DNA of 64,000 nt from an uncultured Erysipelotrichaceae bacterium (lineage in GTDB: Bacteria; Bacillota_I; Bacilli_A; RF39; UBA660): positions 13,762 through 77,761 of the forward strand of contig CACZFH010000001.1 of assembly GCA_902780395.1 (NCBI GenBank), read 5' to 3'. Positions 11,044 through 58,041 of this stretch are shown here, in pieces; the first letter of the stretch is position 1, and every line of letters starts with the position of its first letter. The position numbers and the translations under genes were made by a program. The notes under the pieces were generated by a model, which saw nothing but the letters and a program-made list of their open reading frames with translations, was not told the origin of the DNA and made no database searches.

Positions 11044-11069
11044 ATAACCAAATGGTTATTTTTTTTATT
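11044..11069 (+). terminator. rho-independent terminator of the deacetylase gene
   Basis: AATAACCAAATGGTTATT hairpin followed by T8. Confidence 0.6.
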
Positions 11070-11172
11070 AAACATTATTTTTAGAAATATTTATTATTAT
11101 TCCAATAGATACCATACTGACCAAAAGACTACTTCCACCATAAGAAAGAAATGATAAAGTTACCACCCTCAT
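11068..11172 (-). pseudogene. remnant duplicate of the ftsW 3' end (34 codons)
   Basis: Minus-strand translation MRVVTLSFLSYGGSSLLVSMVSIGIIINISKNNV* matches the FtsW C-terminus GVTLPFLSYGGSSLLVSMVSIGIILNISKNNS* (29/33 identical) at ~80% nucleotide identity to 12138..12238. Confidence 0.7.
11071..11168. repeat. direct repeat copy A (~98 bp, ~80% identical to 12138..12238)
   Basis: Aligned by eye: attattccaatagataccata...ccataagaaagaaatgataaagttacc versus attattccaattgataccata...ccataagaaagaaatggtaaagttacc. Confidence 0.75.
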
Positions 11173-12137
11173 ATATTTTTAAAACAACTTAATTATTATA
11201 GGTTACAACACATAAATAACTTTAAAATATTTTATATTTTTTTTAATAAATTATTTAAGATATCATTATCTTCTATCTTAGATATTTCAAAACATTTTTT
11301 ACCTAAATCTTTAAAAGATGCTCCTGAGTGATATAATATTTTCTTATCGATAATTATAAATCTATCATGAAAATGATTATTAATTATTAATTCTACATTT
11401 TTATATTGCATTTTATACTTTTCATAATCTTTATTATTATACTGATTTGTAATTACTTTTATATTCTTTTTTATCTTAGAAAGTATGTCTAATATGTTTT
11501 TATCAATGTAATTATCAATTATAATGATTTCTTTTTTAGATTTGTTAAATATATCTAGCAAAAGTGAGTAAGCATCATATATCTGTCCTTCGAAGAATAA
11601 ATGATTATTCTTTTCTTTAAAACTTAAAAAAGTATCTTCAATTGCTTGTAATCTTTCTTCATGTTTTATTACCAAATTATTTATATATCTTTGCTCAATC
11701 AAGCCAGAAGAAATATATTTTCTCATAGTTATAAAAGCTTCAATTATTTGAATGTTGATAGTTATAGCAATCTCTGAATTTATTATTCCTGATAGCATTG
11801 CTACTCCTTCTTCTGTAAATGCATATGGTGGTCTACGTAACCCTATTAAATCATTTTTGGAAGTCACAAAATGTGATCTCCAATCCATAAATTCTTCATT
11901 TGTTAATTGAAACATAAAATTATCCGGAAATCTTTTTATATTTCGTTTGACTGATTGCATGAAAACTCTTGTTTCAGTATGATAAAGTTTTGCTAAATCT
12001 CTATCTAGAATTATTTGTTTTCCTCTAATTTCATAAATCATATCTTCTATTTTTAATTTTTCTTTTAATATAATATTGTTCATAAAACCTCCACTGAATT
12101 TTTAACCATATTATATCAAACAAATATTCGTATATCA
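11169..12137. mobile_element. putative ~1 kb inserted segment (single ORF6N gene) bounded by diverged direct repeats of the ftsW 3' end
   Basis: Footprint of site-specific integration into a gene's 3' end: intact gene on one side, displaced partial copy on the other, foreign gene between. No integrase is present. Confidence 0.45.
11232..12083 (-). CDS. ORF6N/KilA-N domain protein with an uncharacterised C-terminal domain
   Basis: N-terminal IYEIRGKQIILDRDLAKLYHTETRVFMQSVKRNIKRFPDNFMFQLTNEE...GLRRPPYAFTEEGVAMLS is the ORF6N (KilA-N-like, antirepressor-associated) signature. The C-terminal ~150 aa alternates beta/alpha elements with HFHDRFIIIDKKILYHSGASFK (weak HxK/D-like). Confidence 0.7.
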   Translation of the reverse strand: MNNIILKEKLKIEDMIYEIRGKQIILDRDLAKLYHTETRVFMQSVKRNIKRFPDNFMFQLTNEEFMDWRSHFVTSKNDLIGLRRPPYAFTEEGVAMLSGIINSEIAITINIQIIEAFITMRKYISSGLIEQRYINNLVIKHEERLQAIEDTFLSFKEKNNHLFFEGQIYDAYSLLLDIFNKSKKEIIIIDNYIDKNILDILSKIKKNIKVITNQYNNKDYEKYKMQYKNVELIINNHFHDRFIIIDKKILYHSGASFKDLGKKCFEISKIEDNDILNNLLKKI

Positions 12138-13220
12138 ACTATTGTTTTTTGAAATATTAAGTATTATTCCAATTGATACCATAGATACTAAAAGAGATGA
12201 TCCTCCATAAGAAAGAAATGGTAAAGTTACCCCTGTAACAGGAATTAATCCTACAACCACCATTAAATTTAAGATTGCTTGAAAAAGAATCTGAAAGGAA
12301 AGTCCAAAAGATAAATATTTCCCAAATAAATCTTTTGATTGTAAAGAAATCTTCATTCCTTGATAAAACACATTAAAGAATAGTCCTACAACTACTATTA
12401 CCCCAACAATTCCAAATTCTTCTGCTAAAACAGAAAAAATAAAATCTGTCTGTGGTTCTGGTAAATAAAAATGTTTTTGAATAGAATTTAAATAACCATG
12501 TCCTAATAGTCCCCCTGGTCCTATTGCATATAAACTTTGTATCATTTGAAAACCACTCCCTAAAGCATCTTTCCAAGGATCTATAAAAGAAATTATTCTT
12601 AATAAACGATAAGGAGCTACAACAATCAAAAGAACTAAACCTATAAAGCCAATAACCCCACCTATAATAAAAAATCTCATATCCATGCCTCCTATAAAAA
12701 GAACAGCAATACAAGATAAAACAATTATAGTTCCTGTCCCTAAATCTGGCTGTAACATAATAAGTCCAAAAAACATAAGAATAACACCTATCACAGGTAA
12801 GAATATAAGAATCGGATGAGAATTATAATAATTGTTATTTTTAGCTAAATATTTACTAGTAAAAATAAGCAAAGCAATTTTACATAACTCACTAGGTTGA
12901 ATTCCCAAAGAACCAATGCCAAACCAACTACGACTGCCATTTCGTATACTACCAATCCCAGGAATTAATACTAAAACCAATAAAAGAAAACTAATTCCTA
13001 ACAAATAAAAAGAGTATTTGTGATAAATAGAATAAGGAATTCTTGAAAATAAGAAGAGTAATAATAACCCAACTATAAAAAATATTCCTTGATATTTAAC
13101 ATAATGAAAAGAATCATGAAAACGATACATTGCCCAAACACTTGAGGAAGAATATACCATCATTAAACCAAGAATTGATAGTAATAAAACACTTCCTAGT
13201 AAATAATAATTTTTCTTCAT
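12135..13220 (-). CDS. ftsW: SEDS-family peptidoglycan glycosyltransferase FtsW/SpoVE
   Basis: Ten-TM SEDS architecture with conserved C-terminal PFLSYGGSSLL motif; sits in the dcw cluster downstream of mraY. Confidence 0.9.
   Translation of the reverse strand: MKKNYYLLGSVLLLSILGLMMVYSSSSVWAMYRFHDSFHYVKYQGIFFIVGLLLLFLFSRIPYSIYHKYSFYLLGISFLLLVLVLIPGIGSIRNGSRSWFGIGSLGIQPSELCKIALLIFTSKYLAKNNNYYNSHPILIFLPVIGVILMFFGLIMLQPDLGTGTIIVLSCIAVLFIGGMDMRFFIIGGVIGFIGLVLLIVVAPYRLLRIISFIDPWKDALGSGFQMIQSLYAIGPGGLLGHGYLNSIQKHFYLPEPQTDFIFSVLAEEFGIVGVIVVVGLFFNVFYQGMKISLQSKDLFGKYLSFGLSFQILFQAILNLMVVVGLIPVTGVTLPFLSYGGSSLLVSMVSIGIILNISKNNS
12138..12238. repeat. direct repeat copy B (3' end of the intact ftsW)
   Basis: See copy A. 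Confidence 0.75.
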
Positions 13221-13277
13221 ACAATCACCTATTTCATTATATGAAGAAAAAAAAAGAATAGCTCAAAAAGAACTATC

Positions 13278-13634
13278 CTATAAATAATCACTTAAAAATG
13301 GAAATTCATTATCACCAATAATATAATTATAAATAGCATCTCCTAAATTCATATATATATGATTTTCATCTGAAAAAAAATCTTCTTTCAAAATAAATAA
13401 ATAATCTTTATAAACAAAAGAAACAAAATCTTTATTATCACTACTTACTAGCATTATATTGTATAATCTAAGAAGTTCATCTTGGATTGTTTTTTTATCA
13501 GAAATTCTTCCCTCCATCATCGCAGCTTCTTTTGCTTTTTCCATACTTACTTGAGGATATTTTCCAATAATTTCATTAGCCACTAAATTAATTCTTTCTT
13601 CTTCTAATAAGTTACCATTATATTCAAAATCCAT
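13278..13634 (-). CDS. hypothetical acidic protein, translationally coupled to the ClpX-like gene
   Basis: Start at 13634 is 2 nt after the ClpX-like stop at 13636; no recognisable motif. Confidence 0.45.
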   Translation of the reverse strand: MDFEYNGNLLEEERINLVANEIIGKYPQVSMEKAKEAAMMEGRISDKKTIQDELLRLYNIMLVSSDNKDFVSFVYKDYLFILKEDFFSDENHIYMNLGDAIYNYIIGDNEFPFLSDYL

Positions 13635-13635
13635 A

Positions 13636-15399
13636 CTAACCCCTAACCTTTCTATTCATAGTCTGTTCAAAAACATTATACACAGTTTCCGAATCAAGTA
13701 GAATCGTTTTACTATTTCCTCTCATAATCTCTTTAAGATAGTGACTTCGAACATTATTCATAATAGTTTGTAAACTTCTAGCTCCCGTATTTAATTTATA
13801 AGCACATTCAGCAATCGCAAGATAGGTATCATCAGTGATTTCCAAATGTCTATCATTACTTTCTACCCACATTTTAAATCCTAACACTGGACTAATTGCA
13901 GATTCTCGCAATATTTTTTCTAATGCCACCACATCATAATCATCTGTATGAAGATAAACATTAAATCGACCAATCAATTCTTTTTCAAAACCTATTTCTA
14001 TCAAATCCTCAGGAGTAATACTATAATTTCCAGTTATAGCTGTTTCCATAGATTCCCCAAATCCCATAGGAGATTTAGCAGTCGTTTTTCTCTTTCTCAA
14101 ATCCGTCAATGCTCCAACACCTGCAAAAGTAAGTTTAGATGTATCAAATTCAATCGTTCTCCTACCAAAAAGGCCATCACCAACTGTAATAACATACTTT
14201 CCTCCACCTAGAAGTTTTAATAAATCATGTTGAACAGCTTTCTTCATGACTAATGCATTTGCCCCACCAAATATAAGTTTATCAATTTCATCTAAAACAA
14301 CTATTCCCCTTTGAGCCAATTCCAAATCACCATTAGCCTTCTTATATTATTCAACTAGAATATTTTCTAAACTACCTCCAACATATCCAGTAGCAGAGTA
14401 TTCACCCATAGATGTAACAACAAAAGGAACTCCGATTTTTTCCGATATTTCTTTAATAATAGCTGTCTTCCCAGTTCCAGATGGGCCATCTAAAAAGATA
14501 ATAGATCTTTCACCATCATTAATAGTTTCACTATTAATTAAACATTGATTATTAATAATATTATAAAATAACTCTTCTGCTAAAGCTTCTTGTCCTATAA
14601 ATTTAGTCTTAATTACTTCCAATAACTTCCATACATTTTCATCAATTACAAATTTATGTCCAGATTTTTCTGAATCTTTATCCTTACCAGTATCTTCTTC
14701 CTTTTTTTCAGTACTTTCTAAATCTTTATCATTATCAATATTCAATTTGTTTTTTCCTAATCTCATTGAAGGATCTAAATAAAAAGATAATAAAGAAGAA
14801 TAATTAGCATTTCTTTTTTTAGTATTTACTGATTTTCCAGCAATACAACCACAATCAATTAAACTTATCTTTAATAAATCAAAAATATCATGATAATAAA
14901 TTCCACCACCAACTAAATCTTTTATATTGTTTTGTTTTCCAAATTTAGAAATAACATTAGAGCCACAATATTTATCACGCTTTAAACAAAAAAATATCAA
15001 TTCTTGAGATAAAAAGTAAACATCATAATCATTAGTACCTTTTGAAACAATATTCATCAAATTTAGTTTAAAAACAGAATTATAATAATCAGCATAGTTT
15101 TTATATCGTTTAGAAAGTATATCATAGCTATCAAAAGGTACAATATCGTCCTCATTTAATTTAACAAAATCAAGTAAATCTTTTAATTTTATATTATACT
15201 GAGAAACTATATTTTTCAAATTACTATCAATTAAAAATCCTGCTATAAATAAAGAAATAACTTTCTTATCAATTAAAGTTAATTCTTCATTATTTACTAC
15301 TAGTTTTTTTCCTTCAATAGCGGCATAAATATCCATTGTTTTTTTTAAATATCTTTGTGTTTCTTCAGTTAAATCATCAAAATTATAAGTTAATGCCAT
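13636..15399 (-). pseudogene. ClpX-family AAA+ unfoldase with a novel ~270-aa N-terminal domain, interrupted by an in-frame TAA at 14347..14349
   Basis: Walker A FLDGPSGTGKT, pore loop TGYVGG, Walker B VVLDEIDKL, MGFG loop (resembles the ClpX IGF ClpP-docking loop), sensor TGARSL. The two ORF-track ORFs are in the same frame separated by a single TAA (…ENILVE*YKKANGDLELAQRG…). No ClpX zinc-finger N-domain. Confidence 0.6.
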
Positions 15400-15474
15400 A
15401 TATAATCCTCCATATACTACAATTATATCATAAAAAGAAAATTAATAAAAAAAAGAAATAGTAAATCTATTTCT

Positions 15475-16476
15475 TTACACCCATACTCCAAAAATAATTC
15501 CTGCCATGGATAATATTAATCCAAAAACCCAAAATAATTTTACAATATCTGTTTCCATCCATCCTAGCTTTTCAAAATGATGATGAATTGGGGTCATTAA
15601 GAAAAGTTTTCTATGAAAGACTTGTACCCAAAATGTTTGTAAAATAACACTTAAGGTCTCTATCACAAAAATAGATGCCACTACCAATAAAGTTAATTCT
15701 CTATGAGTTAATATAGCTATAGCTCCCATTAAGGCTCCCAATGCTAAAGAACCAGTATCTCCCATAAATACTTTAGCCGGATAAGTATTATATATTAAAA
15801 ATCCCATTAAACTACCAACTAAAATCAAACTAAAGATTCCAATATCTTCAAACCCAACTGATAAAGAAATCAAAGAAAAAGCAATAAAGGCAATCGCCGA
15901 TAATCCACCAGCTAAACCATCAAGTCCATCCGTTAGATTAACCGCATTACTAGCTCCAACTAAAACAAATAAAATAGCGAGACCATATAACCAACCTAGT
16001 TCTAAATCTATTCTTAAAGTTCCAACTACCCAAGCCGTTTGCCCACCACTTCTCATATATATATAGAAAAAACCAATGGCAATCAACACTTGCATAAAGA
16101 GTTTTTGATAAGCAGATAATCCTTCATTATTACCTTTTCGAATTGATAAAAAATCATCCAAAAAGCCAATACACGCATACCCAATAAAAACTAATAAAAC
16201 TATTCCTAAATTAGAAGAATAAGTCAACTTATTCATAGCAATCAAGGCAATTGTCGCCAAAACCGTTGGAATAATGAAAATAATCCCACCCATAGTTGGA
16301 GTACCTTCTTTTTTTCGATGAGCATCACCAACAAAGATAGAAATTTTTTGCCCAACTCTTAATTTTCGTAATAAAGGTAATAGAAATAAACCCAAAATCG
16401 TAGAAGATAAAAAGCCAATCATAATAGCAAAAATTGCTTTGGTTAATAGTAACATGAAATTCACTCCATTTCTCAA
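15475..16476 (-). CDS. mraY: phospho-N-acetylmuramoyl-pentapeptide transferase
   Basis: Ten-TM protein with MraY motifs (PTMGG, NAVNLTDGLDGL, VFMGDTGSL, HHHFE). Confidence 0.93.
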   Translation of the reverse strand: MRNGVNFMLLLTKAIFAIMIGFLSSTILGLFLLPLLRKLRVGQKISIFVGDAHRKKEGTPTMGGIIFIIPTVLATIALIAMNKLTYSSNLGIVLLVFIGYACIGFLDDFLSIRKGNNEGLSAYQKLFMQVLIAIGFFYIYMRSGGQTAWVVGTLRIDLELGWLYGLAILFVLVGASNAVNLTDGLDGLAGGLSAIAFIAFSLISLSVGFEDIGIFSLILVGSLMGFLIYNTYPAKVFMGDTGSLALGALMGAIAILTHRELTLLVVASIFVIETLSVILQTFWVQVFHRKLFLMTPIHHHFEKLGWMETDIVKLFWVFGLILSMAGIIFGVWV

Positions 16477-16535
16477 AATATTATATCATACTTAAAACAA
16501 CAATATGACAAACTTCCCATACTTTACAAAATATT

Positions 16536-18449
16536 TTACATAGATTTAGATTTCACATAAACTCTAACTTTACTTCCTTCCTCTAACATTGTAGAACTCT
16601 TAGGACTTTGCTCCACAACTATATCCCCTTCTCCCTCAACAACCATGTCGAATGAATATAACAGCTTTTTAGCTTCCTGAAGAGTTTTTCCAATAACATT
16701 AGGAACCTCATAAGGAATTTTATCATTCCATTCAAAATCTTTTACAACTTCACCCTCTTGTTCTGGTATTTTAAGAGCAGTAATAATATCTAGTAAAATC
16801 CTTCTAGCAATAGGAGTAGTTGTATAACTAGAAAGCATTGCTGTATTTTTTGGATTATCAATTGCCAAATATAAAACAGCTTCTGGATTATTAGCTGGAA
16901 CTACAGCCATAAAACTCATTATATAATTGTTAACCAAATAAACTCCATTTTCACTCTTTTGAGCAGTTCCTGTTTTTCCACCTATGCGATATCCCTCAAT
17001 ATAAGCACTTTTTCCTCCACCTTTAGCCACAACATGTTCTAATGCTAGTCTCATAATAGCAGATGTCTCCGAAGATATAACCTTTCTTCTAAATTTAGTA
17101 TGATACTCTATAATATTATTTTGTGTCTGATTACTAATACTTTTAACAATATAAGGAGAATACAAATATCCACCATTAACAACAGCAGAAACAGCCATAA
17201 CTTGTTGTAAAGGAGTAACACTAATTCCTTGACCAAAAGCTGAAGTTGCTAACTCAACATTACCAATTTGATTCATAGAAAATAAAATACCCTTTCCTTC
17301 ACCATTTAAATCAATACCAGTCTTTTCACCAAAACCAAAATCATGAATATAAGAAAACAATCTTTCTTTTCCCAATAATTGTCCTAATTTAACAAATCCC
17401 GGATTACAAGAATTCTGTAATACTTCTAAAAAGGTTTGATTTCCATGTCCCTGAGTTTTCCAACACTTTAATACACTACCATCTACCGTAACCTTTCCCG
17501 AATCATAGAAATGATCTTTAAAAATATCAACTACCCCTTCTTCTACAGCCGATGCCATCGTTACAATTTTAAATGTACTACCTGGTTCATAACTAAACCA
17601 AATAGGTAAATTCCTACTTAACACACTAGTATCATACTTTTGATACTCATTAGGATTAAAATCAGGATAAGAAGCCATTCCTAATATTTCTCCATTTTTT
17701 GGATTAACTACAATAGCTAAAGCATTATTAGGAGTAAACATTTTCTCAATATTAGATATTTCTCGTTCTAAAGCTTTTTGAATTTGAAAATCAATTGTCA
17801 AATGAATATCCATTCCAGAAGTAGGTGCTTTATATACATCACTTTTAGTAATTTTATTTCCATGAGCATCACTGAAATATTGTATAGCCCCATTTTCCCC
17901 CTTTAAATAGTCATCATACAATAATTCTAACCCTGATAACCCTTGATTATCTATCCCCACATACCCCAATGTATGTGATAATAAATCATTATAAGGATAA
18001 TATCTTTTTGCTTCTTTTACTAAATAAACCCCTTCTATTTTTAAATCAGCAATCTTCTCCGCCACTTTATAAGATAATCTTCTTCCTTCTGGATGCACTC
18101 TTTCAATAGAAGTATTCTTATAAACATGCTTTTTCATTTCTTCATAAGAAACATTTAAAATTGAAGCTAAAGCTTTAGTAGTAACCTTTTTATCCTTTAT
18201 TTGATTAGGAATTAGTACCAAAGAAGTAGTCGTTAAATTATCAGCTAAAATAATCCCATTTCGATCATATATCTTTCCTCTATCAGCTTCTACTTCTAAA
18301 TCACGACTCCATAAATGACTAGCTAAGATAGATAATTTATGATACTGAAATACTTGAATATAAAAAACTTTTAATATAACTAAAAATAAGCAAAAACTAG
18401 TCCCTAAAAAAAGCACTTTCTCTCTTTTATGAATACTCTTAAAAAACAT
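16536..18449 (-). CDS. class B penicillin-binding protein (SpoVD/FtsI-like) with one C-terminal PASTA domain
   Basis: PBP dimerisation and transpeptidase motifs (STFK, SSN, KTGT); C-terminal PASTA; located upstream of mraY. Confidence 0.85.
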   Translation of the reverse strand: MFFKSIHKREKVLFLGTSFCLFLVILKVFYIQVFQYHKLSILASHLWSRDLEVEADRGKIYDRNGIILADNLTTTSLVLIPNQIKDKKVTTKALASILNVSYEEMKKHVYKNTSIERVHPEGRRLSYKVAEKIADLKIEGVYLVKEAKRYYPYNDLLSHTLGYVGIDNQGLSGLELLYDDYLKGENGAIQYFSDAHGNKITKSDVYKAPTSGMDIHLTIDFQIQKALEREISNIEKMFTPNNALAIVVNPKNGEILGMASYPDFNPNEYQKYDTSVLSRNLPIWFSYEPGSTFKIVTMASAVEEGVVDIFKDHFYDSGKVTVDGSVLKCWKTQGHGNQTFLEVLQNSCNPGFVKLGQLLGKERLFSYIHDFGFGEKTGIDLNGEGKGILFSMNQIGNVELATSAFGQGISVTPLQQVMAVSAVVNGGYLYSPYIVKSISNQTQNNIIEYHTKFRRKVISSETSAIMRLALEHVVAKGGGKSAYIEGYRIGGKTGTAQKSENGVYLVNNYIMSFMAVVPANNPEAVLYLAIDNPKNTAMLSSYTTTPIARRILLDIITALKIPEQEGEVVKDFEWNDKIPYEVPNVIGKTLQEAKKLLYSFDMVVEGEGDIVVEQSPKSSTMLEEGSKVRVYVKSKSM

Positions 18450-32019: not shown

Positions 32020-34170
32020 TTACTCTATCACATATCGAGGAGATAATTGTAAAGTAATCTCCATACCATCACTAATAACTACTCCCTCACCAACAGACTG
32101 CGAAGTAACATAGCCAACTCCATCTAAATGAACAATTAGTCCCATTTTTTGCAATAAATCCTTAGCAACTTTTCCCGAAAGGCCAGCTACATTAGGAACC
32201 ACTAAATTAGTATCATTAGTAATTAAATAAATCGTATCTTGATTAGTAATAACATCTCCACTAACAGGACTTTGACGTACTACTTTATCACCATTCCCAA
32301 TTATAGTATACCTCATTCCTCTAGTTTCTAACAACAATTTACTTACATCTATTTTTTTATTTGTAAAGTTTGGCACCTCATAGCTATTAATTGTTATAGA
32401 AGATTGATTACTATCACTGTTACCATAATATTTAGAAATATTTTGAACAATCTCCTTAACAGCATTACTAACTGGTTTCTGACTACCCCCACTTGGTCTA
32501 GCCACCGATGCATAAATAATTATTTGTGGATTACTCTTTGGATAAATACCAGAGAAAGAAGAAATGATATCTTCCTTACCAGTTAAATAACCACCACCAT
32601 GTTCATTAGCTATTTGCGCCGTACCTGTTTTTCCTATTAATTCTCCCCCATCAATACGATAACCACTACCAGTATTTCCAATTCCATTAACACAATCATC
32701 CATTAATGAAAGCATCTTATGTACCGTGTTAGTAGAAGCAACTCTTTCTATTTCTTCTCTTTTATTTTCTAAAACAATCTCTCCTGTTTCAGAATCAACT
32801 ATTTTAGAAACAATATATGGTTTAAGAAGCATTCCATCATTTGTAAGAGGAGTCATGGCCTTTACATTTTGAACAGGTGTAGTCGTAATACCTTGTCCAA
32901 ATCCAGCATTATATATTTCTGTTTCATATTTAAATTCCAAATTACCTTTTGACTCATTAGGAAGTTCAATTCCTGTTCTTCGACCAAAACCTAATTTCTT
33001 AAAGTATTGACGAAGCATAACACTAGACATATGTCGATTAATTATATTAATAACTCCAACATTACTACTCATTGCATAACCTTTATCAAAAGAAATAATC
33101 CCCCAACCATTTCGGTTCCAGTCTCCAATTTCAGTTCCATCAGAAGTAACATACACTCCTGATTTATAGGTCTCATTACCATCATATACCCCATTTTCCA
33201 TAGCAGCCATATAAGTAAATGTTTTCATAGTACTTCCTGGTTCATATGGAGAAGACATAAACAAATTAAGATAATTTGTAATATTACGAGTATTAGGATC
33301 AAATGAAGGAGAAGAAGATGTACCTAAAACAGCCCCTGTCTTAGCATCCATAACAGTAATCGTAAACCAATTCCAATCATACTCTTTATCAGCATTATTA
33401 AGCGCTTGCTCCAAAAAGAATTGAATATTAGAATCAATCGTTAAATATATATCCTTTCCTTGCACTGCATCTTTTTGAATTACTGGAGTATTAGCAATCT
33501 TATAACCCTTTAAATCTTTCTGATAAGTAGTATAACCATCTTCACCCTTTAAAATTTCATTATATTGCCTCTCAATTCCCATTTCACCTTTCATAGTAGA
33601 ATCTTCTTCACTATTTTTTGTATACCCAATAGTATAAGAAGCAAAATTTCCTTTTGGATAGTACCTCTTAAAAGACTCTATAAAATCAAGTCCAGGTAAA
33701 TTTAAAGCATCAATCTGTGTTTTTATAAGCTCCGAAAGTCCTCTACCTTTAGCACCAAACTCTGTTTGATAAAGACCTTCTTTATTTAAATAATGAAGAA
33801 CTTCATCCTTTTCCATACCTAAAATAGGAGCTAATTTAGTAGCAGTATCTTCCTTATCAACAACATGCTGTGGACGTTTTTTATTTGTAGTACGAGAAGG
33901 ATCCAAATAAGCAATCAAAGTATAAGAAGAAACATTTTGAGCTAAAACATCACCATTTACAGAATAAATAGTTCCTCTTTTAGCTTCTTCTATATCCGTT
34001 TTAGTAGTTCTTTGACTAGCTAATTTTTTTAAATCAACACCATCAATTTCAGTCGATAATCCTAATTGAACTACTCTTCCAATCATTAGACAAAATAAAA
34101 GAAGAGAACCAAAAATAAACAATTTTGAATATTTAATTGTATTTTTTCTCTTCTTTTTCACGCATATCAC
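32020..34170 (-). CDS. class B penicillin-binding protein 2B (FtsI-like) with two C-terminal PASTA domains
   Basis: Transpeptidase motifs (STMK, SSN, KTGT) plus two PASTA repeats; follows ftsL in the mraZ-rsmH-ftsL block. Confidence 0.88.
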   Translation of the reverse strand: MICVKKKRKNTIKYSKLFIFGSLLLFCLMIGRVVQLGLSTEIDGVDLKKLASQRTTKTDIEEAKRGTIYSVNGDVLAQNVSSYTLIAYLDPSRTTNKKRPQHVVDKEDTATKLAPILGMEKDEVLHYLNKEGLYQTEFGAKGRGLSELIKTQIDALNLPGLDFIESFKRYYPKGNFASYTIGYTKNSEEDSTMKGEMGIERQYNEILKGEDGYTTYQKDLKGYKIANTPVIQKDAVQGKDIYLTIDSNIQFFLEQALNNADKEYDWNWFTITVMDAKTGAVLGTSSSPSFDPNTRNITNYLNLFMSSPYEPGSTMKTFTYMAAMENGVYDGNETYKSGVYVTSDGTEIGDWNRNGWGIISFDKGYAMSSNVGVINIINRHMSSVMLRQYFKKLGFGRRTGIELPNESKGNLEFKYETEIYNAGFGQGITTTPVQNVKAMTPLTNDGMLLKPYIVSKIVDSETGEIVLENKREEIERVASTNTVHKMLSLMDDCVNGIGNTGSGYRIDGGELIGKTGTAQIANEHGGGYLTGKEDIISSFSGIYPKSNPQIIIYASVARPSGGSQKPVSNAVKEIVQNISKYYGNSDSNQSSITINSYEVPNFTNKKIDVSKLLLETRGMRYTIIGNGDKVVRQSPVSGDVITNQDTIYLITNDTNLVVPNVAGLSGKVAKDLLQKMGLIVHLDGVGYVTSQSVGEGVVISDGMEITLQLSPRYVIE

Positions 34171-34173
34171 TTC

Positions 34174-34479
34174 CTAAGATTCGTTATCTTCAACAACAGA
34201 TTTTATATTATTATTATTATAACTCAAACCCTGCTCTTCCGCAACTGCTTGTATCTTAGTTAAAGATGCCAATTCATCAATAGTCATAGCAATAGACTCA
34301 TTAGTCTTTTTTTGCTTTTCTATTTCTCTTTTTTGTTTTTCTACTTCAAAATTTACCTCTGCTAAAGTAGCTTTGGAAAACACAATCGAAACAGGTGAAA
34401 TTACTAGCAAAAATATAGCTAATGAGTATAGTAATTTCTCAAATTTCGACATTTTTACCCTTTTTTTCACCTTTCTCAC
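34174..34479 (-). CDS. ftsL: cell division protein FtsL
   Basis: ~100 aa bitopic protein with a coiled-coil (EVEKQKREIEKQKK) between rsmH and the PBP gene; position conserved. Confidence 0.65.
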   Translation of the reverse strand: MRKVKKRVKMSKFEKLLYSLAIFLLVISPVSIVFSKATLAEVNFEVEKQKREIEKQKKTNESIAMTIDELASLTKIQAVAEEQGLSYNNNNIKSVVEDNES

Positions 34480-34492
34480 TTTTTTTCATCTC

Positions 34493-35425
34493 CTATTTAA
34501 TTCTTTCAATCACTCGAAGTTTAGAACTTCTTGCTCGCGGATTATGTTCTAACTCTTCTTCACTAGGAACAATTGCCTTTGAAACGACTAATTTAAAATC
34601 CGGTAAATATTCTTCCGGAACATTTGGTAAACCTTTTACCATTTCGTCAATCTGACAATATTCCTTAAAAGTTTTTTTTACAATTCTATCTTCTAATGAA
34701 TGAAATGTAATAACCGCAACTCTTCCACCAACTTTTAATAAAGAAAGTGCTTGCTCTAAAGCTGGCTCTATAACATCTAATTCATGATTTACTTCAATTC
34801 GTATAGCTTGAAATATCTGTCTAGCTGGATGTTTATCCACACGAAATTTCATTGGTACAGCTGTTTTAATAATATCTACTAATTCTAATGTTGTTTCAAT
34901 CTTTTTTGTTTGCCGATATTCGCATATCTTTTTAGCAATATTATTAGCAAATTTATCTTCACCATACTCTCGAAAAATACTAGCTAATTTTTCCTTTGAG
35001 TATTCATTAACAACTTGATAAGCAGATAATTTCTGCTCTCTATTCATTCTCATATCAAGTTTAGCATCAACATGATAAGAAAATCCTCTCTCCCCATCAT
35101 CTAATTGAGGAGAAGACACACCCAAATCAAATAAAACGCCATCTACTTGATGAACCCCAAGCTTATCCAATTCCTCTTTCATATGTACAAAATTACTATG
35201 AATGATAGTGAAGTTAGTACCGATCTTTGAAAGACGATCGGTACTATGCCGAATTGCTTCACTATCTTGGTCAAAGGCGAATAGATAACCCTTTTTTATT
35301 CGATCTAAGATGTCACTACTGTGTCCCCCATAGCCAAGGGTAGCGTCAACTATGATACTATTTTCTTTTAAATTTAGGGAGGAAATAGATTCTTTAAGCA
35401 ATACACTAATATGCTTTTCTATCAT
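34493..35425 (-). CDS. rsmH: 16S rRNA (cytosine1402-N4)-methyltransferase
   Basis: HISVLLKESI, DATLGYGGHS and FDLGVSSPQLD motifs of MraW/RsmH. Confidence 0.93.
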   Translation of the reverse strand: MIEKHISVLLKESISSLNLKENSIIVDATLGYGGHSSDILDRIKKGYLFAFDQDSEAIRHSTDRLSKIGTNFTIIHSNFVHMKEELDKLGVHQVDGVLFDLGVSSPQLDDGERGFSYHVDAKLDMRMNREQKLSAYQVVNEYSKEKLASIFREYGEDKFANNIAKKICEYRQTKKIETTLELVDIIKTAVPMKFRVDKHPARQIFQAIRIEVNHELDVIEPALEQALSLLKVGGRVAVITFHSLEDRIVKKTFKEYCQIDEMVKGLPNVPEEYLPDFKLVVSKAIVPSEEELEHNPRARSSKLRVIERIK

Positions 35426-35859
35426 AAGTCCACACTCTCGTTAAATAAATGATCGGCTATGTCAGACATACTGTCTTTTGTAGAATCAAAGAAAACATCC
35501 CAAGACTCTTGTGACCAGATTTCAAGTCTATCTCCAGTACCAATAATTACACAATCTTTGCTAAGCTTAGCATAATCAATTAATGGTTGAGAGACATTAA
35601 CTCTTCCCTGTTTATCCAATTCTACGTCTGTAGCACCTGATAAAAAGAAACGACTAAAAGTTCTCGCATCTTTTTTGGTGAAAGGTAAAGAAGTAAGTTT
35701 ATCAGTAATCTTTGCCCAGTTTTCTAAAGAATAGACAAAAAGGCAGTTTTCAATTCCTCTAGTAATAATAAATTGTTCTCCTAGAGAATCACGAAATTTT
35801 GCTGGAATAATAATTCTTCCCTTTTCATCAATCGTATGATGATATTCTCCTATAAACAT
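35422..35859 (-). CDS. mraZ: transcriptional regulator MraZ
   Basis: MFIGEYHHTIDEKGRIIIPAKFR signature. Start at 35859 with GGGGGAT RBS; the ORF-track start at 35892 is an extension. Confidence 0.9.
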   Translation of the reverse strand: MFIGEYHHTIDEKGRIIIPAKFRDSLGEQFIITRGIENCLFVYSLENWAKITDKLTSLPFTKKDARTFSRFFLSGATDVELDKQGRVNVSQPLIDYAKLSKDCVIIGTGDRLEIWSQESWDVFFDSTKDSMSDIADHLFNESVDL

Positions 35860-35988
35860 TTTTATCCCCCACTTTTCACCACTATCAACCACTACCTACT
35901 TCAATATTACTGAAAAGAGCTTTTTTTGTAAAGATAAAAAAAGAAAAAAAAAGAAGTTTTACAATTTATTTACATCTTTTTATTCCAC

Positions 35989-49932: not shown

Positions 49933-51375
49933 TTAGTTTCCTTGTTTTATCTTTCTGCTAGCAACAGCATTATAAGCTTCTTCAATATCATTAAAGTAGA
50001 TAGTACCATCTTTTAATTTTTCATAAGTCTCATTACCTTTTCCAAGAATTAAAACCATATCTTTGGCTTCAGCCATATCAATAGCTTTTTGAATAGCTTC
50101 TCTTCTATCAATAACAATTTCATAATTAGTATGATTTTCTTTTAACTCCTTAATAATATCCTCACAGATAGCCACAGGATCTTCACTGCGTGGATCTTCA
50201 TAAGTAAAAATAGCATAACTAGCATTTTCCACTACTACATTACCAACCTTTGGTCGTTTATAAGGATCTCTTTCTCCTGCTTGTCCAATTACTACAATAC
50301 TTCTATTAATATCCAAAGTATGAACAAAATTAAGTAATTTTTGAATTCCATTTGGAGTATGTGCATAATCAACCATAACATAATAAGGCGTATTTGTATT
50401 TAAGAGTTCTAATCTTCCATCTACTTTTAATTCAGGGATTTTTGATAAAACATCATTTAAATGGAATCCTAAAGCTAACACACACAATAAAGCACAAGCT
50501 AAATTATAAACATTAAAGTCTCCCATCAAAGGACTCTTAATAGAAATAATCTCTTCCTTATACTTAAACTCTATATCAGTATGATCAGGATAAACTTTAT
50601 AAGAAACAATTTGTAAATCATTATCTTCTCCAAGTCCATAAGTCAATACTTGTCCATTACAAGCTTCCCTAGCCTGAGAATAATAAGCATCATCATGATT
50701 TAAGATACAATAGCCATCTTTTTTCGTTTGTTTAAAAAGCATTAATTTACACTCTAAATAATTTTCAAAACTACCATGTATATTTAAATGTTCAGAAGTA
50801 ACATTCGTAATAGCCGAGATATCAAATTGCATAGCTTGTAATCTTCCCCTAAAGAAAGCCTCACTAGAAGTTTCAATAGAAGCATATTTACATCCAAAGC
50901 GAACAAATTCATCTAAATATAAATATAAGTTTTGAGCATCAGGAGTAGTATTAGGATTATCTCCTTTAAACTTAGCACAACTTCTACCATTAGTACCTAT
51001 ATAACCACAAACATCACTTCCAATTAATGTTTGAATAATTGTCGTTGTACTAGTTTTTCCATCTGTTCCTGTAACACCTATCATTTTTAATGTTTGATCA
51101 GGATAATCATAGAATTTTTGACATAAATAAGGAAGTTCTAGATTCGTATCAGGAACCTTAATAACAGGGATATCTGGGTCAGTTATATCTTTACTTACAA
51201 CCAAAGCAGCTGCTCCATGCTTTTTAGCATCATCAATATAATCATGACGATCTGCTGTAACTCCCATCGTACATACAAATAAATCTCCTGGTTCAACTTC
51301 TTTTGAATTAATTTTAATTCCTTTAATAAGAACATCTGACCCAATACCAGGATATAATTCTTCTAATTTTTTCAT
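49933..51375 (-). CDS. murE: UDP-N-acetylmuramoyl-L-alanyl-D-glutamate--2,6-diaminopimelate (or L-Lys) ligase
   Basis: Mur ligase motifs (GVTGTDGKTST, central and C-terminal domains; DNPN-like GDNPNTTP). Confidence 0.9.
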   Translation of the reverse strand: MKKLEELYPGIGSDVLIKGIKINSKEVEPGDLFVCTMGVTADRHDYIDDAKKHGAAALVVSKDITDPDIPVIKVPDTNLELPYLCQKFYDYPDQTLKMIGVTGTDGKTSTTTIIQTLIGSDVCGYIGTNGRSCAKFKGDNPNTTPDAQNLYLYLDEFVRFGCKYASIETSSEAFFRGRLQAMQFDISAITNVTSEHLNIHGSFENYLECKLMLFKQTKKDGYCILNHDDAYYSQAREACNGQVLTYGLGEDNDLQIVSYKVYPDHTDIEFKYKEEIISIKSPLMGDFNVYNLACALLCVLALGFHLNDVLSKIPELKVDGRLELLNTNTPYYVMVDYAHTPNGIQKLLNFVHTLDINRSIVVIGQAGERDPYKRPKVGNVVVENASYAIFTYEDPRSEDPVAICEDIIKELKENHTNYEIVIDRREAIQKAIDMAEAKDMVLILGKGNETYEKLKDGTIYFNDIEEAYNAVASRKIKQGN

Positions 51376-51474
51376 ATTACCACCTAAAAATATTATACAG
51401 TAAACGAAAATGGAAAGAAAGATTTTTATTGCTAGAAAAAGGAATTTACGTTAAAATAGTAATGGTGATAATAA

Positions 51475-52380
51475 ATGAGAACAATGATATTTGGAGCAGG
51501 AACAGACTTAGGAGTTCATATCGATGGAGCAAATTTAGGTCCTGTTCAATTACTAAATGATATTAAATCTTTCTACCAAGGAGAAACTTTTTTATTAGAA
51601 AGAGATAAAGATATAATAAAAAGTAGAAATTTATCAGACCGTCGAAAAAATGAATATGAAATTGAAAAATTTAATTCTAAACTATATAAAACAATGGTAG
51701 AAAAAATAAAAGAAGAATACTTCCCTATCATGATTGGAGGAGATCATTCTGCTGCTATTGCTTCTGCCTTAGCAAGTGCTAAAGTAAATATTGACGTTGG
51801 TATGATTTGGATAGATGCTCATACCGACTATAATACCTTTGAAACAACCGTAACAGGAAATATCCATGGTCTTCCCCTAGCAGCAATTAATGGTTATAAA
51901 AACAATGAATTAAGATATTATCATGACGGAAAAATTATTCAACCATCTAAAACCGTTATTATTGGTGCTAGAAGTATCGATGAAGGCGAAAAAGATAATG
52001 TTCGCTATTCAGGTGTAACCGTCTTTACAACTGAAGATGTCAAAGAAAAAGGAATAGAAGCAGTCATGGACGAAGCTTTTAAAATAGCTGGATACAAAAC
52101 AAAAGGAATTCATATAAGTTATGACTTAGATGTCATAGACCCAGATGTAGCTCCAGGAGTAAGTATTCCTGAATTCGATGGTTTAACAGAAGAAGAAGCA
52201 ATGAAAATTAATGAATATATCATTAATCATATGAAAGATGTCTTATCCTTTGACCTAGTAGAATTTAATCCCTTAAGAGATATAGATAGAAAAACAGAAC
52301 AAATTGCTTTAAACATCTTAGCTCAAATAATTAGAGCTGCTGAAAATAAAAAGAAATTTGAACAAAAAACATATTATTAA
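51475..52380 (+). CDS. rocF: arginase
   Basis: Ureohydrolase Mn-binding motifs GGDHS, DAHTD, SYDLDVIDP. Confidence 0.85.
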   Translation: MRTMIFGAGTDLGVHIDGANLGPVQLLNDIKSFYQGETFLLERDKDIIKSRNLSDRRKNEYEIEKFNSKLYKTMVEKIKEEYFPIMIGGDHSAAIASALASAKVNIDVGMIWIDAHTDYNTFETTVTGNIHGLPLAAINGYKNNELRYYHDGKIIQPSKTVIIGARSIDEGEKDNVRYSGVTVFTTEDVKEKGIEAVMDEAFKIAGYKTKGIHISYDLDVIDPDVAPGVSIPEFDGLTEEEAMKINEYIINHMKDVLSFDLVEFNPLRDIDRKTEQIALNILAQIIRAAENKKKFEQKTYY

Positions 52381-52383
52381 AAA

Positions 52384-52409
52384 TAGTATCAACTGATACT
52401 ATTTTTTTT
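52384..52409. terminator. bidirectional terminator (arginase / ComGC-like pilin gene)
   Basis: Hairpin ATAGTATCAACTGATACTAT followed by T8, preceded by an A-tract. Confidence 0.6.
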
Positions 52410-52435
52410 AAGAAAAAGTAGTCCATATCTATTGA

Positions 52436-52611
52436 CTACTTAGCTGTTCCTGTTAAGGTTCCACTTTCAACTATATTAACAGTCTTAGAAGAAACAACAG
52501 CAATATCTTTATTACCCTCTCTAATATTACGAATCATTGGAATAGCAATTGCTGTAATAATTCCCATAATAACAATAGCTACTAATAATTCTACTAGCGT
52601 AAATCCTCTAT
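52436..52611 (-). CDS. ComGC-like type IV prepilin / pseudopilin (orphan)
   Basis: MMKNRG|FTLVELLVAIVIMGIITAIAIP is the canonical class III signal with G-1, F+1 and E+5. AGGTGAT RBS; the ORF-track start at 52672 is an extension. Confidence 0.8.
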
Positions 52612-52642
52612 TTTTCATCATATCACCTATATTATCATTATA

Positions 52643-52675
52643 GCAAAACAACAACAAAAAAAAGCAACTCAATTT
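52643..52675 (-). terminator. rho-independent terminator of ftsZ
   Basis: Hairpin AAAGCAACTCAAATTGAGTTGCTTT followed by U8 on the minus strand. Confidence 0.6.
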
Positions 52676-52691
52676 GAGTTGCTTTAATATA

Positions 52692-53840
52692 CTAAAAATT
52701 ACGATCTCTTAAGAAAGAAGGCATCTCAATATCTACACTACTAGAAGATGAAGCTTCCCCATCAGACGATGAATCACTTAATATCTCTGGTGGATAAGCA
52801 TAGTCTTCTCTATTTGGAACCCTCCTTGTAGCTTGTGCAGGAGTAGCATTAGCCACATAAGAATTATCTACTACAGCTGCCTGCTTCTTCGCTTTATCAA
52901 ATCCAGTTGCTATTACAGTAACAATTACTTCATCACTTAGATTTTCATTAATAACTGAACCAAATATAGTATTAATATCTGTATTAGCAGCACTTCTAAC
53001 AACTTCTGCAGCTTGTTCAGCCTCAAACAAAGTTAAATTTACTCCACCAGTAATATTAATAATAGCATCTGTAGCACCTTCTATAGAAGTTTCCAATAGT
53101 GGTGATGAAACAGCTTGTTTAGCAGCTTCTAAAGCTCTATCTTCACCCATGCCAATACCAATACCGATAATAGCACGACCACTTTTTTCCATAACTGCCT
53201 TAACATCTGCAAAATCAAGGTTAACTAATCCAACAACAGCAATCAAATCAGAAATGGATTGAACTCCTCGACGAAGAACATTATCAACTTCTTTAAATGC
53301 TTCTAACATTGGAGTAGATTTATCAATAATCTCTCTTAAACGATCATTAGGAATAACAATTAATGTATCTACATGTTTCTTTAATTCATCTATTCCTGCT
53401 AAAGCATTTTCCATTCTTCTTTTTCCTTCAAAAGAGAAAGGCTTTGTAACAATAGCAACCGTTAAAGCTCCTAATCCTTGAGCAATTTCAGCCACAACAG
53501 CAGCAGCTCCAGTACCTGTTCCACCACCCATTCCAGCAGTGATAAATACCATATCTGCTCCAGCTAAAGCATCTTCTATTTCTTTTTTAGATTCAACAGC
53601 AGATTCTTTTCCAACTTCTGGTTTTCCACCAGCTCCTAACCCATCTGTAAGACTAGCTCCAATTTGGATTTTAACATCTGCTTTAGAAGAATTTAAAACT
53701 TGTAAATCTGTGTTAGCAGCAATAAACTCTACTCCCTTAACCCCAGATTCAACCATTCTATTAATAGCGTTTCCACCACCGCCACCTAAACCGATGACTT
53801 TGATTTTCGCTAATTGATCCATTTCTAATCCGCCTATCAT
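52692..53840 (-). CDS. ftsZ: cell division GTPase FtsZ
   Basis: [13 protein letters not shown] tubulin signature and T7 loop; acidic/Ser-rich C-terminal tail. Confidence 0.97.
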
Positions 53841-53852
53841 ACCTATTCCTCC

Positions 53853-55088
53853 TTAAGGTTTAAGGATATCCCCAAATACCTTATTTAGCATGTTTTCTTT
53901 TGAGATAGAAGAATCCATCGTTAGCAATGATTCTCCATCATCTTTGGAAATCATATTATAATGTTTTCCTCTTAACTCTAATTTATCATCAAAATATTTA
54001 ATAATTCCATAAGAACTACTATATTGATTATGTCTAATTCCTAAAGTAGTCATAGCAAGAACTTTCGCAACAAAACCAAACTCTTGTTCTACTAATTCTG
54101 AAAAACCAGACAACTCGGTCAAACCACCTGTTACAATTATATAACGTATTTCTCTATTTGTTAAGTTTTTTATTTCATTTTTAGCAAGTTTTAAGATTTC
54201 TCTTACTCTAGCTTCTACTACTTTAGAAACTCCCAATTGATTAATTTCTTTTGTATTCTCTTTATCAATCGAAAAAGTATATAAATCACCTGCATCAGCA
54301 TGATTAGCAATAGCTAAAGAAAAATCCTCTTTAATTCTTCTAGATTCTTTCAAACTAGCTTTAAACACATAAGTAATATCCTTATCTACATTCAAACTAC
54401 CTACTGGTAGAGTACTATTTTTAATTTGAATTCCTTTATTAAACACCGAAATATTAGTAGATTCTTCTCCTATATTAATAATAGCCCCTACTAATTCATC
54501 ATATTTATGATTTTTAATACAATAATAATCTCCTACTGAAGCAAAAGAAATATCAACTGTTTCTAAACCACTAAGTTTTAATACTTCAAGAATTCTATAT
54601 AAAGGTTCCTTAGGCACAGTACTAATAACTACCTTAGTACTTAAAGTACTACCCTTCATTCCTTTAGGATCTTTTATATCATTTTGTTCATCAACTGTAA
54701 AACTAATAGGCATAGCCGTAACCAATTCATCACTTTTAAATTCTTCTTCCTTCATAGCATCTAATAAAACATTACTAATATCTACACCTGTTATTTCATT
54801 ATAATCAACAACATTAACTGCTCCTAAGACAATATTCATCTTACAATTAACAGAAGGAATACAAGCCACAACTTTTTCTATTTTAATTCCCAAAGAATTT
54901 TCAATTTTTTTTAAAGCGTTTTTAACACTAGCTACAGCTAATTTAGTATCTTCAACAAACCCATTTTTGATACCTTTAGAAGGACTACTAACAGATGCTA
55001 AAACATGAAATTTATCATTTACTTTTTGAGATACCACTATTTTAATTCGACTAGTACCTAAATCAATTCCAGTATAAATATCACTCAT
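53853..55088 (-). CDS. ftsA: cell division protein FtsA
   Basis: Actin-fold motifs GIDLGTSRIKIVV…VTGGLTEL; immediately upstream of ftsZ. Confidence 0.93.
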   Translation of the reverse strand: MSDIYTGIDLGTSRIKIVVSQKVNDKFHVLASVSSPSKGIKNGFVEDTKLAVASVKNALKKIENSLGIKIEKVVACIPSVNCKMNIVLGAVNVVDYNEITGVDISNVLLDAMKEEEFKSDELVTAMPISFTVDEQNDIKDPKGMKGSTLSTKVVISTVPKEPLYRILEVLKLSGLETVDISFASVGDYYCIKNHKYDELVGAIINIGEESTNISVFNKGIQIKNSTLPVGSLNVDKDITYVFKASLKESRRIKEDFSLAIANHADAGDLYTFSIDKENTKEINQLGVSKVVEARVREILKLAKNEIKNLTNREIRYIIVTGGLTELSGFSELVEQEFGFVAKVLAMTTLGIRHNQYSSSYGIIKYFDDKLELRGKHYNMISKDDGESLLTMDSSISKENMLNKVFGDILKP

Positions 55089-55190
55089 AGAATCCTCCTA
55101 CCTTTAAAAATAATTATACATTATTTTCAAACTTTTGCAAACACTATTAAAAAAGAAAAGAAAAAAAACAATTATAACATCTTATAATTG

Positions 55191-55892
55191 TTATTCCATA
55201 ATTTTAAAGTGATTTCCATTATCTAAATATAAGATTCCATGATGTCCTTCTAATTGTTGTAATACTTCATTATAATGATTAATCATTTTAAATTTTGTTA
55301 ATGTTAAATACACCATATTTCCATCGTCCATATATAAAAGGAAACGATCTTTATCATAATCATTTGGCTGATATTCAATATCTCCTATCTTAGACAATGT
55401 ATTATCTTTTACTTTTCCCATATTTTCAATAAACTTTTTATACTTAGTATCTGGAACATAATTCAATAATCTTGGTACCCGAAATGTTTTACTAACATCA
55501 TTAACTCCTACGTTAGTAGCATCATCAAAAACATATTTTTGTTTATTCTCATCAAAGAACAAAGCTTTATTCTCTTCAACAATTATTCGAAAGACAAAAC
55601 CATATTCTTTTTTCAAACGAGCTTTATGAATATAAGGAGATTTTTCCAATTTCTTAGCAACCGCCCTAGAAGAAGTTAAAAGAAACTCTGGATAATCTTT
55701 CACTCCAGCAATTTCTAACACTTCATCATCATTTAAATACTTAGTACCTTCAACTATTAAATTAGCTACTGGTATTTGAAAACAATAATACACAACGAAA
55801 GAAAGCCCTGTTAAAACAAACAGAGTAAGAAAAAAATTCCATATTTTCAATTTCCTTTTTTTCACAATCTTTTTTGTCATATCTACTCCCAA
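55191..55892 (-). CDS. divIB: cell division protein DivIB/FtsQ
   Basis: Bitopic protein with POTRA-like region, between murB and ftsA. Confidence 0.7.
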   Translation of the reverse strand: MGVDMTKKIVKKRKLKIWNFFLTLFVLTGLSFVVYYCFQIPVANLIVEGTKYLNDDEVLEIAGVKDYPEFLLTSSRAVAKKLEKSPYIHKARLKKEYGFVFRIIVEENKALFFDENKQKYVFDDATNVGVNDVSKTFRVPRLLNYVPDTKYKKFIENMGKVKDNTLSKIGDIEYQPNDYDKDRFLLYMDDGNMVYLTLTKFKMINHYNEVLQQLEGHHGILYLDNGNHFKIME

Positions 55893-56791: not shown

Positions 56792-56795
56792 AAAA

Positions 56796-57872: not shown

Positions 57873-58041
57873 AAAATCACTCCATCTATCAAAATTATAC
57901 CATACTTTCAAAAGAAAAATGGTATTATTCTTAAAAAGCAATCATACTTTACACTGTATTTTATGATGAAATTGTTCATCATAGAACAATTGAAAAAAAC
58001 TCCTATTTTTGATAAAATAATACCAAGAAAGAAGGTGTCCC

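Follow-up and report, generated by a model that had tools for sequence, protein, structure and literature searches.

Our analysis of a 64,000-nucleotide stretch of DNA (hereafter the window) indicates that the two open reading frames lying between mraY and ftsW probably form a cassette, in which a ClpX-type unfoldase with a Clp-N domain is encoded together with a small partner protein, that the unfoldase was recently nulled in this strain by a nonsense mutation, and that the position between mraY and ftsW is incidental. The locus appears to be a self-contained two-gene cassette, narrowly distributed among uncultured gut Bacilli of low GC content. Judged from its sequence, the AAA+ gene of the window strain is best regarded as a pseudogene of an ordinary kind and of recent origin, whose intact form is an uncharacterised variant of the Clp unfoldases, since the codon occupied by the premature TAA is a sense codon in close as well as distant orthologues and essential motifs are lost. 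The first-pass annotation of this DNA had described a ClpX-like AAA+ gene with an in-frame TAA between mraY and ftsW, and the sequence facts of that description all hold.

Organisation of the locus

The window has a GC content of about 26-33%, and nearly all of its genes lie on the minus strand. The order of transcription on this strand is a PASTA PBP gene, mraY, the AAA+ gene, an ORF of 118 codons and a SEDS gene of the ftsW/spoVE type (Table 1). Joined through the TAA, the AAA+ gene comprises 587 codons, and the ATG of the partner gene follows 1 nt past its TAG; the tight coupling that had been reported for the two ORFs is therefore real, although the gap between them is not the two nucleotides first given. 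The core motifs of the AAA+ module were located by direct reading and by alignment to E. coli ClpX.

Table 1. Coordinates of the AAA+ gene, its partner and the surrounding features in the window.
Feature	Position	Strand	Basis
PASTA-containing PBP gene	16536-18449	-	
mraY, flanking, outside the module	15475-16476	-	
Terminator-like hairpin and U-run, overlapping the mraY stop	15442..15477	-	RNA fold
Promoter-like extended -10 TGATATAAT	15422-15430	-	direct reading
SD GGAGG, 7 nt 5' of the AAA+ ATG	15407-15411	-	direct reading
AAA+ ORF, codons 1-350	14350-15399	-	
Predicted divergent double Clp-N domain, residues 1-190	14830-15399	-	
Lys/Asp/Glu-rich linker, residues 191-250 (~60 residues)	14650-14829	-	
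First part of the AAA+ module, residues 251-350	14350-14649	-	
Walker A GPSGTGKT	14464-14487	-	direct reading, alignment
Pore-1 GYVG	14377-14388	-	direct reading, alignment
In-frame TAA, codon 351; TTA (Leu) in the sister strain	14347-14349	-	
AAA+ codons 352-587, same frame, untranslated remainder	13639-14346; TAG 13636-13638	-	
Walker B VVLDEIDK	14278-14301	-	direct reading, alignment
MGFG at the ClpX IGF-loop position	14056-14067	-	direct reading, alignment
Arg-finger GR, R478	13966-13968	-	direct reading, alignment
Sensor-2 TGARSL	13771-13788	-	direct reading, alignment
SD-like AGGGG, 5 nt before the partner ATG	13640-13644	-	
Partner gene, acidic helical protein of 118 aa (118 codons)	13278-13634	-	
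Terminator-like hairpin and T-run 3' of the partner gene	13255..13279	-	
ftsW/spoVE-type SEDS gene, flanking, outside the module	12135-13220	-	
dcw block: mraZ (by position only)-rsmH-pbp	32-36 kb		
dcw block: murE; murG ... ftsA-ftsZ	~50 kb; 52-58 kb		
dcw block: pbp-mraY ... ftsW	12-18 kb		

The hairpin at the mraY stop codon has a 10-bp stem (AAAGAAAUAG/CUAUUUCUUU) and a 5-nt loop followed by eight U; it was recognised by RNA folding and was missed by the consensus terminator scanner, for which it is too AT-rich. Likewise, the extended -10 was not reported by the promoter scanner, which requires a -35 hexamer, and its sequence suggests that it may act as a promoter. Bracketed by two terminator-like hairpins and provided with its own promoter-like motif and SD, the cassette in the window seems to stand apart from the flanking genes. 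Rfam at gathering thresholds, applied to the entire window, gave zero matches.

Origin and consequences of the premature stop codon

The truncated product of 350 aa is recorded on 14 contigs. We fetched five of these loci, which come from different assemblies and runs (ERZ28613845, ERR3224606, ERR3201383, ERR3211453 and ERZ1029116), and all of them carry the TAA; in four, the whole 2122-nt pair of genes matches the window at 100% identity, and in the fifth there is likewise no difference in the 2027 nt that its contig covers. An intact protein of 587 aa (P0343) shares a 90% cluster with the truncated product. Over 4750 nt its contig (L069, run SRR27755812) shares 99.5% identity with the window, codon 351 being TTA (Leu), and the 2122-nt pair shows 8 differences between the two, with none beyond codon 351 and none in the partner gene. 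Twelve aligned relatives have Leu at this position (Ile in one), within a motif E-L-Y, and the frame 3' of the TAA contains no other stop and no frameshift. Hundreds of full-length relatives of 560-582 aa are present in the protein database; among the 120 relatives listed, ten clusters of 579-598 aa share 82-85% identity with the protein and the rest mostly 45-49%.

These data point to a single T-to-A change at window base 14348 that turned Leu351 (TTA) into TAA, very recently and within a species whose only other known strain keeps the gene intact, since the 99.5% identical sister contig has TTA and no differences after codon 351. This corroborates the earlier proposal of a very recent nonsense mutation, and the search for orthologues found the gene intact in relatives (587 aa in P0343/L069 and 582 aa in locus L058).

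The first-pass annotation had also raised a sequencing error and readthrough. If the TAA were an artefact of sequencing or assembly, or were read through by a suppressor tRNA or by recoding, the full 587-aa protein would be made, and it agrees with this that the frame is otherwise perfect and that the missing residue is a conserved Leu. Such an explanation is nevertheless very unlikely. A random sequencing error is excluded by the identical DNA of five assemblies made from different runs, and recoding is unlikely because TAA is the commonest stop in the window, where it ends 33 of the 63 long ORFs. The stop is followed by U, and UAAU is a strong stop context. A tRNA scan of the window found no tRNA gene, so that no suppressor tRNA is encoded there. 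The codon reassignments reported in related orders affect Arg codons and not stops, AGG being reassigned in one RFN20 clade (PMC8629427). Here AGG encodes the invariant Arg364, and this reassignment therefore does not apply to the AAA+ gene.

The TAA falls between the pore-1 loop and Walker B. The translated product thus ends before Walker B and is predicted to lack this motif together with sensor-1, the Arg finger, the ClpP-docking loop and the small subdomain; with Walker B, the Arg finger, sensor-2 and the small subdomain gone it cannot be an ATPase, and the T-to-A change would thus null the unfoldase and leave the partner gene intact.

We also considered that the gene might be functionally split, a 350-aa N-terminal fragment and a 229-aa C-terminal fragment initiated at TTG 14325 forming an active ring together, or the N-terminal fragment acting alone in the manner of the Clp-N-only proteins ClpT and ClpC2. 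Synthesis of a C-terminal fragment is conceivable, as an SD-like AGAAGG lies 11 nt 5' of this in-frame TTG just past the TAA, but the same bases merely encode the conserved YKKANG. Moreover, the break runs through the large, nucleotide-binding AAA+ subdomain, after the pore-1 loop and before Walker B, and a split at this point occurs in no relative, which makes a functional split very improbable. The open frame after the TAA is to be expected of so recent a mutation, with no differences from the sister strain in this part. Plant ClpT1/T2 and mycobacterial ClpC2 are products of dedicated Clp-N-only genes, whereas the fragment in the window would be a nonsense product with an incomplete ATPase domain.

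The ratio dN/dS against L058 is 0.45 for codons 352-587 and 0.14 for codons 251-350. When derived changes were polarised with outgroups, 12 were assigned to the window branch and 16 to the sister clade; five fall after the stop, all of them conservative. A pseudogene decaying under relaxed selection after the stop was rejected, because the window branch is not accelerated and shows no differences from L069 in this part, and the gene thus appears to be just broken and not decaying.

The AAA+ module is of the ClpX type

To judge from profile and structure-database searches, ClpX is the closest family for residues 255-576. The NCBIfam ClpX model NF003745 matched these residues with E 2.5e-43 over model positions 61-402 of 418, and the HslU and ClpA models of NCBIfam scored far lower. 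The match to the HslU model TIGR00390 was piecewise only, at 53 bits against a cut-off of 362, with no full-length similarity, and HslU matches in the PDB spanned only ~100 residues around Walker A. A profile of the family retrieved ClpX structures from the PDB at E 8e-41, the alignment running through the IGF loop (iGfg on IGFG).

In an alignment of 46 family copies with E. coli ClpX, the Walker A, GY[V]G, Walker B, Arg-finger and sensor-2 motifs are conserved. The pore loop reads GYVG in most copies, with the Val replaced in at least four. At the position of the IGF loop, 40 of the 46 have a motif [ILMVF]G[FY]; one has IVF and five have lost the loop, so that some members must act without ClpP. 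The assignment to the ClpX family with all core motifs, as first proposed from the sequence, is borne out by NCBIfam, by the ClpX structures of the PDB and by this alignment.

The scores stay far under the ClpX equivalog cut-offs (148.5 bits vs 359 for NF003745; 127.8 vs 370.75 for TIGR00382), and the RKH loop of ClpX is not conserved, its place being taken by DGLFGR in the window species (in the intact P0343) and by NSIFDM and others in the family. The motifs and the alignment to ClpX, together with these low scores, indicate a motor of the ClpX type in a protein that is not a ClpX orthologue by curated criteria. The protein has one Walker A and one Walker B, with one AAA/AAA_2 match and one D2-small match, and no tandem D1/D2. 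Neither ClpP nor canonical ClpX was found in the window, in the contig flanks read or within ~7 kb of the pair at any family locus.

The N-terminal domain and the linker

An AlphaFold model of residues 1-215, built with 32 aligned relatives, gave a mean pLDDT of 86 for residues 1-190 and a pTM of 0.83. The domain is modelled as mostly helical with two similar halves, and structure comparison identifies it as a highly divergent double Clp-N domain, as found in the two-ring Clp/Hsp100 proteins ClpA, ClpB and ClpC. This assignment came solely from structure comparison, the sequence methods being blind to the domain: Pfam gave no N-domain match, Clp_N included, in the window protein and 32 family members, and a 30-sequence profile of the domain searched against the PDB sequences returned noise only (E >0.1). 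The domain had first been described as novel and unrecognised; it is a divergent Clp-N domain and not a new fold.

The zinc-binding C4 N-domain of ClpX was not found, as the ClpX models start to match only at residue 255 and the four Cys of the N-domain in the window are not kept in relatives. The first-pass annotation had an unrecognised domain of ~270 residues in place of the ClpX zinc finger. The replacement stands, and its extent is now reduced to ~190 structured residues plus a linker of ~60. The modelled part of the linker (residues 192-215) has pLDDT <50; linker length and sequence vary among relatives, and its dN/dS against L058 exceeds 1. It is unusual for a Clp-N domain to be joined to a single ring of the ClpX type, and we found no description of such an architecture in the literature.

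The partner protein

The small ORF, first noted as coupled to the AAA+ gene, proved to be genuine, tightly coupled and conserved. By tblastn, the partner lies directly 3' of the AAA+ gene in 44 of 52 genome loci, and clustering of ORFs showed the pair kept in 43 of 50 loci with variable neighbours. In 41 of the 50 loci the partner begins at a distance of -1 to +3 nt from the AAA+ stop, and in 32 this distance is exactly 1 nt. These counts argue for a conserved pair that is probably translationally coupled. In the window strain the partner gene is intact, with its own SD-like sequence.

The partner has 240 homologues at 90% clustering, and an exhaustive profile search of 1.84 billion representatives found 102 matches, nearly all of which are free-standing and 105-125 aa long. 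Its conservation exceeds that of the AAA+ protein (~65% identity where the latter has ~47%), and it shows conserved motifs at its N-terminus (M-x-F-E-Y-N-G-N-L) and C-terminus (F-P-x-x-S-[DE]-[FY]). The model has a pLDDT of 85 and five main helices; structure comparison found no specific relative, only a generic helical bundle. Comparison with Pfam, NCBIfam, PADLOC and PHROG assigned the partner to no family, and it shows no likeness in sequence or fold to known Clp adaptors (ClpS, MecA, SspB and others).

In the intact relatives, the most likely course is that a hexameric single ring would pull substrates through the GYVG pore and would dock on ClpP by the conserved [I/L/M]GF loop. The partner would bind the Clp-N domain and serve it as an adaptor or regulator of its own; an action on this domain is suggested by analogy with the pairs ClpS-ClpA, MecA-ClpC and SspB-ClpX.

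Distribution of the family and gene order

The hosts of the family are MAGs labelled as uncultured Bacilli, Tenericutes, Mollicutes or Erysipelotrichaceae, from human, rabbit, chicken, ruminant and other samples. One host, Ca. Aphodocola, corresponds to the GTDB order RF39 (PMC8035907).

The first-pass annotation had placed the AAA+ gene where murD normally sits, and had noted that murD and murF are absent from the window. The absence was confirmed, as E. coli queries for murD, murF, murC and ddl had no match in the window, and no Mur-ligase, ClpP or AAA match of Pfam is on record for the contig flanks (~7.5 kb and ~8.5 kb). The placement over-reads the synteny. The order mraY-pair-ftsW is limited to the window genus (L058 and L064, both at ~93% DNA identity, and L069 at 99.5%; in L058 the intact gene lies in this position), and neither mraY nor ftsW lies beside the pair in any of the 48 more distant family loci (L006-L053), so that no functional link follows from the murD position and no cell-wall role is implied. 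The hairpins and the promoter-like motif likewise isolate the pair. The "murD slot" thus appears to be a matter of local gene order and not functional evidence. The dcw genes are scattered over three blocks in the window (Table 1), and the orders RF39, RFN20 and ML615J-28 are reported to have incomplete peptidoglycan pathways (PMC10868615).

Clustering of the ORFs at 50 loci revealed no gene family that accompanies the pair. The commonest neighbour, present at 7 loci, resembles by eye an operon for a heavy-metal P-type ATPase. Locus L023 was examined as a possible case of clpX-locus synteny, with lon ~2 kb downstream, and was rejected owing to an apparent ffh in between and the lack of tig. 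Neither a CtsR operator nor a CIRCE element was found in the 69 loci, and nothing therefore ties the pair to the classical heat-shock regulons.

The variable neighbours could also mean that the pair is an accessory module of the conflict type, akin to phage defence or toxin-antitoxin systems and not a housekeeping protease, the nonsense allele being one of many losses. Several observations agree with this: duplicates occur (in tandem in L034, and in L027 and L010/L022); copies are disrupted by a nonsense mutation in the N-domain (L020), by frameshifts (L039 and L047) or by 5' truncation (L064/L065); the IGF loop is missing in five copies; and dN/dS of the AAA+ gene is raised in the window genus, at 0.39-0.53 vs 0.06 for mraY. 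However, some of the disruptions may be assembly errors of the MAGs, and the partner is strongly conserved. The PADLOC matches are weak and of the generic P-loop kind (IetA, E 3e-6; DolB, 4e-6; for the partner BrxA, 0.003), no nuclease, toxin or other effector domain was found, and searches of viral contigs and phage genomes turned up no related pair, IMG/VR yielding a single weak unrelated match. We consequently regard a conflict module as unlikely. Fast evolution in the genus and the disrupted copies are compatible with a housekeeping protease and equally with a dispensable accessory gene, and the unfoldase cassette remains the reading that we prefer. A mobile or phage origin was rejected too, as only the AAA module finds matches in phage genomes, with phage ClpX at 35%, and phrog_4339 covers the AAA module only.

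Comparison with known Clp systems

Compared with ClpX (TIGR00382/NF003745; PDB 3hws, 6po1 and 6wr2), the family has a single AAA+ module that can be aligned end to end at E ~1e-40, sharing Walker A and B, GYVG, the Arg finger, the sensor-2 TGAR and, precisely where ClpX has IGF, a hydrophobic-Gly-Phe loop. It differs in having a predicted Clp-N domain and a long charged linker where ClpX has its C4 zinc-binding N-domain, in the missing conservation of the RKH loop, in its co-encoded 118-aa partner and in its scores far under the equivalog cut-off. With ClpC, ClpA, ClpB and Hsp104 it shares, by structure comparison of the model, the double Clp-N repeat; these proteins have two rings, whereas the family has one ring, no M-domain and an N-domain that the Pfam Clp_N model does not see. 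The partner, all-helical in the model, resembles neither MecA nor ClpS, and it is encoded downstream and not upstream.

ClpI of Actinomycetota (PMC10149685) is a lineage-restricted, uncharacterised Clp class defined bioinformatically, and hence a precedent for a class proposed from genomes alone, although it belongs to a different phylum.

For the window itself, the outcome is mostly deflationary, with an ordinary, very recent loss-of-function allele and an mraY adjacency that says nothing about function. The interest now lies in the family, in which the N-domain of two-ring Clp proteins, the part that binds substrates and adaptors, sits on a one-ring ClpX motor with a loop of the ClpP-docking type, next to a partner like no known adaptor. 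The intact family might represent an undescribed class of Clp unfoldases that combines Clp-N, a single ClpX-type ring and an obligate 118-aa partner and occurs solely in uncultured gut Bacilli with reduced genomes (RF39 and its relatives), where it could replace ClpX and/or ClpC, the partner acting as an N-domain adaptor of a new kind; we put this forward tentatively, as a possibility against which we still lean. If the partner is an adaptor, it would provide a new way to wire substrate selection onto a ClpX-type motor, and would also inform on the proteolysis machinery of abundant uncultured gut bacteria. With one strain naturally null and a sister, 99.5% identical, that is intact, the function could be compared in vivo.

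Rapid evolution and disrupted copies of the unfoldase gene

Comparison of the window with L058, a locus from the same genus, gave the ClpX-like unfoldase an overall dN/dS of 0.53, rising to 0.71 across the Clp-N domain and exceeding 1 for the linker. The same comparison yielded 0.06 for mraY, 0.19 for ftsW and 0.32 for the 118-aa partner ORF, and the unfoldase thus evolves much faster within the genus than its neighbours.

Disrupted copies of this AAA+ family were detected at about 1 in 10 loci (see table for positions). The copy in L020 has an in-frame stop in the N-domain, at the position equivalent to Gln67, while L039 and L047 carry frameshifts and L053 carries several; these disruptions may reflect true recurrent loss or consensus errors in the MAGs. 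The gene is also broken off in L064 and L065, two assemblies of one relative (93% identical), where it abuts unrelated DNA of higher GC content that encodes a PBP-like protein on the opposite strand. Either the gene was disrupted independently a second time, or the assembly is a chimera.

Features of the window and of related loci
Feature	Locus	Position
Unfoldase gene	window	13636-15399
Direct repeat	window	11066-11164 / 12133-12231
ORF6N-domain gene	window	11232-12083
dcw blocks	window	12135-18449; 32020-35892; 49933-57941
AAA+ break point of L064 and L065	window equivalent	14872
Broken AAA+ gene and adjoining unrelated DNA	L064	1-1092
Broken AAA+ gene and adjoining unrelated DNA	L065	1-559
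In-frame stop	L020	~7200
Frameshift	L039	~4900
Frameshift	L047	~6670
Frameshifts, several	L053	
Loop-less AAA+ copy	L034	5277-6881
Region of the PASTA-PBP fragment	L058	4165-6466
Region of the PASTA-PBP fragment	L069	2-1364

Variants within the AAA+ family

A deletion of some 20 residues has removed the IGF-type loop, at the position of the ClpP-docking loop of ClpX, from five family copies (L031, L034, L036, L041 and L046); L034 has two copies in tandem, and the upstream one is affected. The loss of the loop from these sequences suggests that they are ClpP-independent paralogues. A divergent subgroup, formed by L047 to L050, has a different ORF, of 148 aa, in place of the 118-aa partner; next come genes for large proteins of 695 and 578 aa, and the cluster is conserved and co-directional.

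Genomic surroundings of the gene pair

In the window, the division and cell-wall (dcw) genes do not form one cluster but fall into three separate blocks. No tblastn match to murD, murF, murC or ddl was obtained in the 64 kb, nor is any Mur-ligase Pfam match recorded for the contig flanks read (~7.5 kb and ~8.5 kb adjoining the window). Peptidoglycan pathways are reported to be partial in RF39, RFN20 and ML615J-28 (PMC10868615).

At the other end of the pair's surroundings we found a direct repeat of 99 nt (81% identical): the 3' end of ftsW recurs beyond an ORF6N-domain gene. L064 lacks this gene and carries another, encoding 409 aa, at the equivalent site. The site appears to be a small hotspot for insertions, with duplication of the target.

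On the mraY side, the PASTA-PBP gene is intact in the window, unlike in its closest relatives, L058 and L069, where only a 220-aa C-terminal fragment is left upstream of mraY. In L058 the genes preceding the fragment encode a large serine recombinase and cargo (APH, ABC_tran and NUDIX), a stretch that looks like an integrated element, and the fragment in L069 has a 240-aa ORF on its 5' side.
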